A DNA stretch of 64,000 bases, taken from a virus. The translations under genes were made by a program, and so were the position numbers. The notes beneath the pieces were generated by a model. The model did not search any database. It saw only the letters and a list, made by a program, of their open reading frames with translations, and had not been told where the DNA came from. The stretch lies in the IMG/VR virus record IMGVR_UViG_3300034283_002790, positions 123,385 through 187,384 of that record. One strand, 5' to 3'. Shown here piece by piece: positions 4,675 to 13,097 of the stretch; positions within the stretch are counted from its first letter, which is position 1, and every line of letters begins with the position of its first letter.

Positions 4675-4764
4675 AAGAGTATAAGATTAAATTGTGAGGT
4701 GAATTCCTTAACGAAGTGAAACGAGTGAAGGACCATGAACCGAATGATTTGATCTTATACTCTT
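4675..4764. repeat. ~90-bp hairpin element with 18-bp inverted arms
   Basis: AAGAGTATAAGATTAAAT (4675-4692) against ATTTGATCTTATACTCTT (4747-4764), one mismatch that is a G-U pair on the plus strand. Confidence 0.75.
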
Positions 4765-5242
4765 AAAAAGTATTATATCTATTTTCTAAATCTATTTCTC
4801 TAACAAGAAGACCTGAGTTATCCTCAAACCATGTTTTAAATATTGGGATCCATTTATCACCAAATAATGTTGTCAGTTCATTTATAACCCCCCTACTTAT
4901 TGATAAGGTATGCAAATATTCATACCCATCCCATTCTCCAAGATATGAGTATGCTGGTGAATCATCAATTAGAAAATCATATATACCATATTGTTCTAAT
5001 TCTACTTTATAAAAATCGTAAATGTCGCTCCAACCATAATCCGGATAAAACTGTTCTGTAAGGTATTGATAAATAAAATAATTAATTTCTTCATCATTTA
5101 GATCTATTAAACTAATTAATCTACTGACCCCATTAACAGCAAGTGATGCTTTTTTAATACCTACAGTACCAATCAATTCCCTCAAATTATTCTTAAGTGA
5201 ATTTTCCCTTAATATTCTTTTGATGGATTCTTGTAGGTTCAT
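4763..5242 (-). CDS. Leader-array protein (MNLQESIKRILRE plus helical module)
   Basis: Shared leader; start overlaps the upstream stop (ATGA). Confidence 0.8.
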   Translation of the reverse strand: MNLQESIKRILRENSLKNNLRELIGTVGIKKASLAVNGVSRLISLIDLNDEEINYFIYQYLTEQFYPDYGWSDIYDFYKVELEQYGIYDFLIDDSPAYSYLGEWDGYEYLHTLSISRGVINELTTLFGDKWIPIFKTWFEDNSGLLVREIDLENRYNTF

Positions 5243-5724
5243 ATAAGTTCAATGCGTTCTATCTTTTCTTTTATTGGTTTAAATAATAATAAGTTTCTTA
5301 CCCCACCTTCATATATCCAAACACCATCATAATTACCTTCTAACCATTCCATTACATCGTCATTCGCTTCAATTGCCGACCAACTATCAGAGTTGTAATA
5401 CAATTGTTCAGGTTCTGTTATATAATAATCATCTTCATCTTCATCGTAATATGGGTCAATCAAAGTTCCAAACTCGTCAATTATTAATTCACAATCTTTC
5501 AATAGATTGGTATCAATTAAGTTCAAATTTCTTCTTAAAAAAACTCTATAAATGTATTCCCCATATGATTTTGCTTCATTTTCACTAATTGAAAAAAATG
5601 TCCCATTAAACATTAAACCTTCTTTGTTAAATTCGTGTTTTTCTGATGTCCCGTGATAAACGATTAAATCATTTTCATTTAGTTCCTCCCTTAATATTCT
5701 TCTTATGGATTCTTGTAGGTTCAT
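5239..5724 (-). CDS. Leader-array protein with an ADP-ribosyltransferase-like (ART-PolyVal-like) domain
   Basis: LIVYHGTS...GTFFS...EAKSYGEYIYRVFL pattern typical of ART-fold domains. Confidence 0.55.
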   Translation of the reverse strand: MNLQESIRRILREELNENDLIVYHGTSEKHEFNKEGLMFNGTFFSISENEAKSYGEYIYRVFLRRNLNLIDTNLLKDCELIIDEFGTLIDPYYDEDEDDYYITEPEQLYYNSDSWSAIEANDDVMEWLEGNYDGVWIYEGGVRNLLLFKPIKEKIERIELI

Positions 5725-5740
5725 TTCTTATAAATATCTA

Positions 5741-7219
5741 TTATAAATCACTGTCATTATCTGTATTGGTCACCTGTAAATCATACACGGAATTTAACCA
5801 TTCCTTTGTAAGTTCTTTTATTTCTTTGAGAGTAAGTTCGAATTCTTGTGCTAGGATTTTCCATATTTCCTCATAACTAATTCTACATTCACTTTTTATA
5901 TCGATCAAATAGTTATAATTTATTGTAAAATGTATGAATATAATGTTATCGGGATTATACCCATAACAAATCACATCAGGATCATCATCAAACTCCCAAC
6001 TTAATTCCGTTTCTGAAAGTGGAATAATTTTTAGATCGTCAAATAAGTGTAGGTAATCCATTGGTGAATTTATGTTTAATATTTTACATAAGTTTTTAAA
6101 TCCACCTACCGCTTTTGTAGTTAATTCAACCCCTATGGATTTGATCGAGCGTAATATCGTATCTCTAAGACTGGTGTCTTCAGTTTCTTCCCTCAATACT
6201 CTTTTTATGGATTCTTGAAGATCGTCCGTTGTGTATTTTCTATTCATTAACCAGTCATACCCACCGCAAGAATTAACATATGATCTTACAATTTCAGTAT
6301 TAAATGGTACAAACAATTTAATGGTTTTGAGCAAGTTATTCATTAAATCTAATTCTTTATAGAGTATTCTTTGAGTTCTTGGCCATACTTCTGAGTTTGG
6401 TCCACCAACAAAATAAACTTTAACCAAATATGGAATTTTATCTTTATTCGAATAATAATATTGGTCATCTCTTTCTTCAGGAGTTATTATATCAACCCCA
6501 CAAAAATGTTTGCAATCAGAAACGTCATAAGAATTAATTATACCTTTAATTAAATTTTTTTGTAAATTTGTATTTCCGGACAATTTTGACTCATTTATAT
6601 ATTTAATTTCTTCTCCACACTTCTTAACATAATAAGGGGCAAACACATAAACATTTAAACCCCAGGAACTAATTGTATTATCTATTAATGCTAATACATC
6701 ACTTAGACCAGAATCATGAAGTTGGTAGTATCTAATTGGTGAAGAAGATCTAATTTCGTAGTCACCATCTTCAGAATTATATTCAACCCACATGTCACAA
6801 ATGTTATTGTTAGTGGATTTGACTCTTTGAATTAAATCATTGATTAATTTGAGAAAGTAATCTTCTTTTTTTCCTTTTGATTCATTTAATGGACTCCATT
6901 CACAATTTGGTTTTGTGTAATAACCAACAAAAATATTTCGTATAGGTAGAAATACCTCTAATTGCATTTTAACCTCATCCCGCATTTCTTGAATATAACT
7001 TCTAATTCGGTATAAATTTAAAAACTTATCATGTAGTTCTTCTTGACTAAAAACTAAATAAATGTTGTAATCAGGATCTTCAACATCAAAAGAAACTCTT
7101 ATATCGCATATACAATCTTTTTTTTTGAAGTGTTCCAACATCCTTTCGATGACCTCAATAAAAATACCTGGTTCCATTTCCTCTTTTAATATTCTTCTTA
7201 TGGATTCTTGTAGGTTCAT
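5741..7219 (-). CDS. Leader-array multidomain protein (three related Cys-containing domains, an internal leader, a C-terminal domain)
   Basis: Domains separated by PLNESK and YINESK, then an internal DLQESIKRVLREE. Confidence 0.8.
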   Translation of the reverse strand: MNLQESIRRILKEEMEPGIFIEVIERMLEHFKKKDCICDIRVSFDVEDPDYNIYLVFSQEELHDKFLNLYRIRSYIQEMRDEVKMQLEVFLPIRNIFVGYYTKPNCEWSPLNESKGKKEDYFLKLINDLIQRVKSTNNNICDMWVEYNSEDGDYEIRSSSPIRYYQLHDSGLSDVLALIDNTISSWGLNVYVFAPYYVKKCGEEIKYINESKLSGNTNLQKNLIKGIINSYDVSDCKHFCGVDIITPEERDDQYYYSNKDKIPYLVKVYFVGGPNSEVWPRTQRILYKELDLMNNLLKTIKLFVPFNTEIVRSYVNSCGGYDWLMNRKYTTDDLQESIKRVLREETEDTSLRDTILRSIKSIGVELTTKAVGGFKNLCKILNINSPMDYLHLFDDLKIIPLSETELSWEFDDDPDVICYGYNPDNIIFIHFTINYNYLIDIKSECRISYEEIWKILAQEFELTLKEIKELTKEWLNSVYDLQVTNTDNDSDL

Positions 7220-11675: not shown

Positions 11676-11698
11676 TCTAGTAATAAATAGTAATTTTG

Positions 11699-12673
11699 TT
11701 AAATTGTATAATCAATCAACACGTCGTCAAAACCAGTTAATTTGAGATTTCTCATAAGATTATAAGTAAATTCGTTAAGTAGATCATTAATTTCTTGGTG
11801 TATTTCCCAAGCAAACTCAAAGTCCTTTAATTTTTTTGATTTAAGATCTAAAGTTTCGTCTGTCATCATGAGGGTTACTGTTCCTTCTACTATCTCATAG
11901 AAAAATAAAAGATAATTGTCGTTATTTTGAACGTATAAAAGTTTAAAAATAAATTCATATCCTCCAGTATTAATATTAAAATCACGAATATCCAACTTTC
12001 TTTCTTGGAAATATTCCGTAATCATCTCTGTGGATATGATATTAAAAATATTCGAAAGATTTTCAATGCCATCAACATATTTACTTGCCGCAATCAATCC
12101 CTGGGTTTCTATTATGTTTAATAAATAAGTTTTTAACCTAGATTTATTATTTTCATTTACTACATCTTTATTGTTTTTTGGATGAATCTTATGTAAAATT
12201 CCTTGTAGTTCTGATTCATAGAATTTGTATCCACGAATTATAATTTCCTGATTATCAAAATTTTCACCATTTATTTTTATAACATCAACTAATGGAGTTC
12301 TAGGAAAAAAAGAAGAAATTTCCGTATTTAATTTGAAAGAAAATTCAACTTCATCATTTTGTATTACAATGAACGTTTTTAACTTTTCATTTTGGATTGG
12401 ACTTAATTTTTTGTGGTCATAAATTACATTTATCAATGCGGTTCCTTGAGTTTCCCATCTATTTAATTTGTAACCAATTATCTCGAAATCAAACTCATAA
12501 TTATTTCCCAAAAATGAATAATATACTTTTCCATTCAAATTATTGAGTATGTCACTTAATTCCGGATCATTTAATGAAAAGTTTTTTAGATGTTCTAATC
12601 CACCAAATAATTCTAAAGTCTTAGCCATTCCACCCCTTTGAATTAATTTTTTTATTTTATGGGATAAATTCAT
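11699..12673 (-). CDS. Protein with two copies of the helical module shared by array members
   Basis: KIKKLIQRGGMAKTLELFGGLEHL and YLLNIIETQGLIAASKYVDGIENL. Confidence 0.7.
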   Translation of the reverse strand: MNLSHKIKKLIQRGGMAKTLELFGGLEHLKNFSLNDPELSDILNNLNGKVYYSFLGNNYEFDFEIIGYKLNRWETQGTALINVIYDHKKLSPIQNEKLKTFIVIQNDEVEFSFKLNTEISSFFPRTPLVDVIKINGENFDNQEIIIRGYKFYESELQGILHKIHPKNNKDVVNENNKSRLKTYLLNIIETQGLIAASKYVDGIENLSNIFNIISTEMITEYFQERKLDIRDFNINTGGYEFIFKLLYVQNNDNYLLFFYEIVEGTVTLMMTDETLDLKSKKLKDFEFAWEIHQEINDLLNEFTYNLMRNLKLTGFDDVLIDYTI

Positions 12674-12680
12674 ATTTCTT

Positions 12681-13097
12681 CTAACTAATAACTTTTATAT
12701 AATAATCATTTCTTCTGAAAACAGGGTGTCCTATAGGTTGTGTTTTGAATGGAAAAAATTCATTTATGAGTTGCGAGATTCCCCCAGCGTAGGGACCAAA
12801 ATACCGAGAATGTGGATCTCCTATTTCAACAGTCAAAATTTTTCGTCCAAGGTGATTAATATCTAGATTTACAGAAATAACATTTAAACCCTCAATGTGT
12901 TCAATAAAATTAATTACAAGCATATCCCTGGTACTTTCATCATTCAAATCCAAATCTAAAACCGAAACCAATTGATCCAGTCCACCTAATACATTCGAAG
13001 TTTTATACACTCCTTGAGTATCAAGTAAATTTTCAATTTTATTTTGAAAAGAAGTTTCTTCTTTTATGATTTTTAATATTTTACTTTTTAAACTCAT
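12681..13097 (-). CDS. Leader-like protein (MSLKSKILKIIKEE plus helical module)
   Basis: KIENLLDTQGVYKTSNVLGGLDQL. Confidence 0.7.
   Translation of the reverse strand: MSLKSKILKIIKEETSFQNKIENLLDTQGVYKTSNVLGGLDQLVSVLDLDLNDESTRDMLVINFIEHIEGLNVISVNLDINHLGRKILTVEIGDPHSRYFGPYAGGISQLINEFFPFKTQPIGHPVFRRNDYYIKVIS

Follow-up and report, generated by a model that had tools for sequence, protein, structure and literature searches.

The capsid-targeting sequence (CTS) of phage T4 and the internal-protein (ip) loci of the T-even phages were reportedly described by Mullaney and Black (1996) and Repoila et al. (1994), as cited in PMC3012670, PMC9026906, and PMC12373910. In the review passages drawn on, the T-even internal proteins form a very varied group of defense proteins in which the conserved CTS is the only common part (PMC3012670), and an N-terminal packaging leader is likewise all that T4 Ip1 to Ip3 share (PMC12373910, PMC3012670). 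Passages of two further papers state that T4 packages the ADP-ribosyltransferase (ART) Alt in its head (PMC5512222) and that the T4 prohead protease gp21 cuts after L/I-x-E, an Asp in place of that Glu blocking processing of the CTS (PMC9026906). Here we describe an array of leader-tagged genes in a 64,000-nucleotide stretch of viral DNA (the window), the final 64 kb (positions 123,385 to 187,384) of the 187,384-bp IMG/VR contig IMGVR_UViG_3300034283_002790 (completeness estimate, 64%). Positions are those of the window unless called genome positions, which are those of the contig. The element in question is a 14-residue N-terminal peptide, the type A leader (consensus MNLQE.I[KR][KR][IV]L.EE; representative MNLQESIRRILREE), and we lean toward the view that it and its sister leaders are capsid-targeting propeptides like those of the T-even internal-protein loci, present here in several types.

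The type A leader opens eight minus-strand genes in strong form between 4763 and 11675. Seven of these are adjoining open reading frames (ORFs) with starts at 9056, 8224, 7892, 7542, 7219, 5724, and 5242, which overlap or are separated by no more than 16 nt and all open with MNLQE[SNH]I[KR][KR][IV]L[KRM]E; the eighth copy, MNLQSFIKKILKEE, opens a DUF2237 gene at 11675. In-frame internal copies lie inside genes at 6185-6226, 8613-8654, and 9722-9763, and weaker leaders open genes at 13097 (MSLKSKILKIIKEE), 20140 (MYNIIKKILLEE), and 45713/45716 (MFYNFKKILKEE). A hidden Markov model (HMM) of the leader, run over the six frames of the 187-kb contig, gave 11 strong copies (E values of 1e-7 to 1e-9) and one more at genome 112894, the rest being noise. 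A looser core motif was about 18-fold enriched near N termini, with 20 matches in 7,980 N-terminal positions (first 30 residues) against 7 in 50,087 inner ones, and 3 of these 7 are the internal copies in fused genes. Sec/Tat signal-peptide features were not found in the type A leader, which is charged throughout and has no hydrophobic stretch. A sequence-only reading made earlier had claimed seven consecutive genes with a shared leader, which the ORF list and the HMM scan that it had suggested bear out, and three internal copies, which were located as given above; the leaders it had called weak are so at 13097, 20140, and 45713/45716 but not at 11675, where the copy is strong.

Judged by its genes, the contig is a T4-like jumbo phage from a clade of uncultured, ~260- to 320-kb T4-like phages. 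It encodes a Peptidase_S77 (gp21-type) prohead protease (genome 45951-46688; E value, 1.5e-23; 34% identity to T4 gp21), the gene that the sequence-only reading had proposed to look for elsewhere in the genome, together with a gp23-type capsid protein (E value, 2.7e-65), a gp20-like portal, and a large terminase. Five complete relatives of 257 to 321 kb, with capsid proteins 75 to 82% identical to that of the contig, all carry both a Peptidase_S77 and a gp23-type capsid protein. One 269-kb relative (G001, the IMG/VR contig of leader locus L010) has two capsid-protein and two S77-protease genes, at 31291-34973 and 233494-237944; its two head-gene sets are only 45% identical to each other and represent either a second set or a chimeric contig. 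The best cultured capsid matches were Flavobacterium phage immuto and Microcystis phage Mel-JY01, each at ~41% identity, and a pattern search of immuto for type A and type B leaders found none. A 23-aa type B query had no match in the GenBank phages, the homologues labeled as NCBI-sourced were metagenome contigs and not isolates, and PHROGs gave no useful names for the array and head-module proteins.

The leaders are spread over many related phages. A degenerate DNA pattern of the type A leader matched 87 stretches of IMG/VR contigs, often several times per locus and up to 8 times within 3 kb, and 135 ORFs translated from these stretches have the leader precisely at the N terminus. Altogether, some 150 occurrences of type A were counted in 87 related viral contigs. 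Among 167 nonredundant type A-like motifs, 146 stood at the exact N terminus and 21 were internal. The payloads that carry A or B leaders formed about 96 clusters, 56 of them singletons, at the stricter thresholds that were adopted; loose single-linkage had merged 562 proteins into one cluster. The scan of related contigs had itself been suggested by the sequence-only reading, whose claim that the proteins are mostly unrelated after the leader agrees with this number of clusters and with the different folds of the ART, KptA-like, GNAT-like, and DUF2237 payloads; its scope did not extend to the spread over many phages, to the two sister leader families, or to the frozen codons discussed below.

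These sister leaders occur in the same loci and the same genome as type A. Type B, MKK[IV]IRLTESDLxRIVKRVIxE, opens eight unrelated small genes on the minus strand, all upstream of the window (genome 67759-68301, 91388-91669, 106530-106979, 109687-110145, 115583-115978, 120223-120837, 121652-121996, and 122057-122392), and type C, MK[YF][IL]ITE, opens the gene at genome 122443-122838 as MKYLITESQ. At an identical junction, homologous payloads are joined to leaders of type A, B, C, or another kind. Within a single payload family, for example, the leader changes from MNLQENIRRILKEE/TDGV.. to MKYILTESQ..LLLEQ/TSGL.. and MRRITESELIRLVRRVIKEE/TSGH.. (a slash marks a junction here and below), and in an ART family retrieved from 5.8 billion proteins, MNLQE.., MKYIKLFEEF, MKSLKQILREE, or no leader precedes the invariant (I/V)VYHGT core. 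The leader loci are variable, with turnover of payloads between related phages. The leader is a detachable N-terminal module, and type A appears to be one of at least three interchangeable leader types in this phage clade.

All three leader types end in L/I-x-E, which is the gp21 cleavage rule. Position 13 of type A is Glu in 128 of 129 copies, never Asp, and follows Leu11, while position 14 is Glu or Asp (these positions were not forced); type B ends in I-x-E, x being free, in all 23 copies, and type C in I-T-E in 86 of 92. The sequence-only reading had placed a cut at the terminal EE. The invariant L-x-E ending supports a cut in this region, but since position 13 is a near-invariant Glu and position 14 also takes Asp, the cut likely falls after Glu13 (ILRE/E) and not after the second Glu. 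Head-module orthologues of this phage and of the relative G003 differ in their N-terminal peptides and keep a hydrophobic-x-E junction at the predicted sites: VMLE/APMDF corresponds to KLNE/APIDY, KILNE/ITS..SRGSY to YLTE/ATS..SRGSY, and, in the protease, ILKE/N to LIRE/S, with LINE/ATS in the capsid protein and LVKE/S in the scaffold (genome 44091-45581 in this phage) predicted in both phages. Directly after the capsid protein gene, at genome 40811-41824 on the minus strand, a basic 337-aa protein is a candidate prohead-core or internal protein, and leader-like motifs were noticed at its N terminus (MLNKIIKKILNE), in its middle (ESIDDVIKNILRE), and at its C terminus (DQIIRRILRNL).

The Pfam domains of the payloads are complete without the leader. 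The product of the gene at 5239-5724 matched Pfam PF18760 over residues 20 to 150 (E value of 6e-6, below the gathering score), and its AlphaFold2 (AF2) model, with a domain predicted local distance difference test score (pLDDT) above 90 and a leader helix (residues 3 to 18) at a pLDDT of ~57, matched in Foldseek an ART-type anti-CRISPR protein (6kyf), the RES and MbcT toxins, and exotoxin A (ExoA). The DUF2237 payload matched its Pfam family with an E value of 1e-36, and the Pfam matches of both the ART and the DUF2237 payloads begin at residue 20. AF2 modeling of the 8226-9056 protein puts the internal leader at the end of a long helix, with a hinge behind it (residues 148 to 150; pLDDT below 50); beyond the hinge lies a confident C-terminal domain with a resemblance to KptA/Tpt1. 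Matches of the N-terminal domain to GNAT in a fold comparison were weak. The leader is thus predicted, with low confidence, to be an amphipathic helix outside the payload fold. Only 5 of 94 representative leader proteins had Pfam matches (DUF2237 in three and ART-PolyVal in two), and no replication or metabolic enzymes were found among the 94 by Pfam. The ART-like and DUF2237 labels of the sequence-only reading are upheld by these Pfam and fold matches, its GNAT-like label draws weak support from the fold only, and the models show something other than a leader that is an integral helix of one shared fold, an outcome it had named as damaging to its case.

Internal copies mark the joints of fusion proteins, the 21 internal type A-like motifs lying at module boundaries. 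In 41 of 45 cases, a type A-like leader, N-terminal or internal, precedes the YSPAG domain, which is the KptA/Tpt1-like domain just described; of its internal positions, 27 of 30 keep the leader-like peptide, with no fewer than 12 different partners upstream. Concatenations in the relatives that are larger (600 to 1,057 aa), and presumably older, have an N-terminal leader only; proteins of 800 to 1,057 aa there (L029:178-3351, L043:137-2851, L083:4732-7788, and L064:3451-5841) string together modules that are separate leader-tagged genes in this phage. In one ART homologue (P0011), a leaderless ART ORF reads through into the MNLKESIRRILREE of the next gene, which shows how fusions at leaders can arise.

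According to the capsid-targeting reading, the amphipathic leader helix would dock the newly made protein onto the scaffolding core during prohead assembly, the gp21-type prohead protease would then cut after the invariant Glu of the terminal L/I-x-E (in type A, ILRE/E), and the freed payload would remain in the head and enter the host with the DNA. By this mechanism, the array would be the counterpart of the T-even ip loci, and the payloads, which are mostly orphan proteins along with ART-superfamily, GNAT-like, and DUF2237 domains, may have an anti-defense role. The sequence-only reading had also proposed capsid targeting, and the protease gene, the detachable module, the invariant L-x-E, and the ART payload speak for that proposal; its cut site has been shifted, and the concept is not new, since T-even internal-protein loci are already so described in the passages drawn on (PMC3012670, PMC12373910).

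Several observations weigh against capsid targeting. The residue behind the predicted type A cut is Glu or Asp, whereas the sites in the T4 record are followed by Ala or Ser (MKTYQEFIAE/A, ..ITE/A in IPI, and MAKINELLRE/S in gp24). The T4 CTS MKTYQEFIAE has only a loose likeness to type A (M, polar, hydrophobic, Q-E, and then I), and type C (MKYIITE) is nearer to it, both being comparisons of peptides too short for statistics. The T4 late-promoter motif TATAAATA was not enriched, with 73 occurrences against ~68 expected, and did not lie upstream of the head genes. Searches of the GenBank phages by megablast and tblastn with the array and one payload gave no match, and there is no close cultured relative. 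Targeting alone gives no explanation for the frozen codons of type A, and a targeting signal would be redundant at the internal positions of fusions, where leaders are nonetheless retained; a cut-here function would explain that retention, and redundant targeting would not.

Some of these observations are what one would expect if the leader were a docking helix for a partner other than the prohead, such as a hub protein of the phage or the host, a chaperone, or an adaptor for timed degradation, with L/I-x-E incidental to an amphipathic helix rich in Lys, Arg, and Glu. The predicted amphipathic helix, the retention of leaders inside fusions, and the position of the array among auxiliary or early-type genes, with the late promoter not found, all fit such a partner. 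A plain helix would not, however, predict an invariant Glu that is never Asp, with Leu or Ile two residues earlier, in three otherwise different leaders, and the head-module proteins of this lineage have the same junction and a matching protease; we consider the docking helix unlikely. Far less probable still, to the point of being very improbable, is that a single large, diverged protein superfamily has the leader as its integral first helix, the array genes then being paralogues. The single cluster of 562 proteins at loose single linkage and the near-constant pairing of the YSPAG domain with a type A-like leader would suit common descent, but the ~96 clusters at stricter thresholds, the different payload folds, the Pfam domains that are complete without a low-pLDDT leader, the hinge behind it, and the occurrence of the same payload under unrelated leaders or none do not.

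The codons bear on whether type A is conserved mainly as nucleotides, either as an unstructured translation-initiation cassette or as a 42-bp homology joint for payload recombination, with the peptide secondary. Type A codons are near-frozen (AAC at 90% versus 23% in payloads, ATA at 98% versus 45%, GTA at 97% versus 30%, and CTA at Leu3), the variable codon 6 has a conserved third base, and the identical-codon rate is 0.80 in the leader versus 0.64 in capsid-protein orthologues. In all 8 genes compared, the native initiation region had less structure than its synonymous recodings, the copies being nonindependent, and payload families swap leaders and fuse at them, all of which would suit selection on the DNA or RNA. 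Yet conservation begins exactly at the ATG, with nothing conserved upstream, and in types B and C, synonymous sites vary freely under fixed residues, so that selection there acts on the peptide. Diverged type A copies, such as the internal one at 9722-9763, keep their residues and change their codons, and for this reason the codon layer does not replace the peptide function. A reading in which nucleotides come first is therefore quite improbable to us, though it can form a further layer above the peptide function, and we read the frozen codons as such an extra layer, due either to recent spread by recombination or to selection for an open initiation region. A bolder form of capsid targeting would give the leader three roles together, those of an address tag, a mark for cutting, and a joint at the DNA level, and the injected effectors would belong to a cassette system. 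Frozen codons and the conservation of internal copies would then be accounted for as well; we put this form forward as a tentative idea only. Equally speculative is its corollary that domains preceded by the 42-bp type A leader may be shuffled between phages, fused or split, and still be addressable to the capsid and releasable by the protease.

The array itself lies on the minus strand, and its genes are given here in order of position. The gene at 4763-5242 joins the type A leader MNLQESIKRILRE to a 145-aa payload of the "VGG" family (ORF list; payload cluster 11), which is also found under other leaders, and that at 5239-5724 joins the leader to the ART-fold, ART-PolyVal-like domain identified by Pfam, AF2, and Foldseek. 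A 492-aa fusion protein with a type A leader follows at 5741-7219, with the internal leader DDLQESIKRVLREE (6185-6226) at a module boundary and modules that are separate genes in relatives. Type A leaders then open genes for a 94-aa payload (7216-7542; cluster 3), from a family of 16 members of which some are under other leaders, for an acidic 100-aa payload with no family match (7548-7892), and for a member of the "RRR" family, which is the largest of the payload clusters (7892-8224). At 8226-9056, the leader precedes the GNAT-like domain, the internal leader RNLQESIRRILREE (8613-8654), directly followed by the low-confidence AF2 hinge, and the KptA/Tpt1-like YSPAG domain of the ART superfamily. 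The fusion protein at 9062-10159 has no N-terminal leader; its internal leader DTLKESIKKILREE (9722-9763) has conserved residues and diverged codons, and relatives encode its C-terminal module as a separate, leader-tagged gene, the product of L015:2645-3340 being 78% identical to its residues 135 to 365. An SprT-like zinc metallopeptidase without a leader lies within the array at 10237-10701. It was considered as a dedicated leader-processing enzyme and rejected, no homologue having been found in any other fetched leader locus.

Further along the same strand, the type A variant MNLQSFIKKILKEE opens the DUF2237 gene at 10761-11675, which ends in a C-terminal Cys-motif tail. In these last ~48 aa (residues 256 to 303; 10761-10905), a Lys-rich Cys motif, C-W-K-G-Y ... 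P-N-C, matches the C termini of the uncharacterized PHROG families phrog_9737, phrog_727, and phrog_4359; Lys- and Cys-rich tails that are loosely alike, by eye only, close the head-module proteins at genome 39303-39791 and 40811-41824. The gene at 11699-12673 has a degenerate leader-like start, MNLSHKIKKLIQ (ORF list), and that at 12681-13097 a weak leader, MSLKSKILKIIKEE, before a "VGG" family payload. Outside the array, weak leaders open the genes at 20140-21084 on the plus strand (MYNIIKKILLEE; HMM and core motif) and at 44241-45716 on the minus strand (MFYNFKKILKEE; HMM). The window also encodes a UvrC-like nuclease (27737-29011), a DinB/Pol IV-like polymerase (30832-32064), a full DnaJ (55333-56283), a thymidylate synthase (24600-25637), and a Dam-type methylase (54209-55117), and its sole tRNA is a tRNA-Asp (GTC) at 33490-33563 on the minus strand. 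Tandem paralogues at 46003-47133 and 47137-48111 on the plus strand start alike, with MNIEQLIEYFNDGEYE and MNIDTLIEEFNATEYD, and have no family match.

The T-even CTS and ip loci resemble this system in that a short N-terminal peptide is all that otherwise unrelated small proteins have in common, their genes are grouped in variable loci, the protease is of the gp21 type, and the leader ends in L/I-x-E. They differ in the leader, which is 10 aa long in T4 (MKTYQEFIAE) and 14 aa here, in the presence here of at least three coexisting, swapped leader types and far more payload families, and in the in-frame internal copies in fusions, the frozen type A codons, and the uncultured ~260- to 320-kb phages known from sequence. 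This likeness would make the array a system of the kind found in T-even phages, carried by an uncultured and distant branch of the T4 superfamily. Alt of T4, a head-packaged ADP-ribosyltransferase trimmed by gp21, likewise combines an ART fold with an N-terminal propeptide and belongs to a T4-type phage; the ART payloads here, at ~145 aa, are small and ART-PolyVal/AcrIF11-like or KptA/Tpt1-like, with a likeness to Alt at the level of the fold class.

Ejection or inner-body proteins of the jumbo phages phiKZ, 201phi2-1, and SPN3US are also head-internal proteins cut after Glu by a diverged gp21 homologue (PMC9026906, PMC7411985), but with the motif S/A-x-E, and no single conserved leader is reported in the passages of those papers drawn on. 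The polyvalent proteins that Iyer et al. (2017; PMC5512222) report from phages and conjugative elements, as the passages drawn on describe them, have overlapping domains (ART-PolyVal and GNAT), a predicted delivery with DNA, and 2 to 15 conflict domains per polypeptide, to which the module strings of up to ~1,050 aa in the relatives and the two- to three-module fusions in the window may be likened, whereas here most modules have a gene and a leader to themselves. No polyvalent-protein hub (zincin MPTase or MuF) was found by Pfam in the 94 leader proteins; the SprT-like protein is a separate gene that is not conserved in the relatives. The PeSLs, mobile regulatory cassettes through which modules are shuffled in T4-type genomes, offer a parallel as short conserved DNA, repeated at gene boundaries, that could drive cassette exchange, but in the passages of PMC2839356 drawn on, they are intergenic promoter and stem-loop elements, while the repeat here is coding and starts at the ATG.

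New here are the different and multiple leaders, the many more payload families, the fusion forms, and the frozen-codon leader. The internal copies and frozen codons hint at how such cargo gets reshuffled. Should the leaders prove to be tags for capsid targeting, about 100 protein families that an abundant clade of aquatic phages delivers into its host with its DNA would be recognizable by a simple sequence rule. These families would then be a catalogue of candidate host-takeover and counterdefense proteins, mostly orphans and including two NAD-using ART-type enzymes, and the packaging-tag principle of T4 would be old, widespread, and workable with several interchangeable tags.

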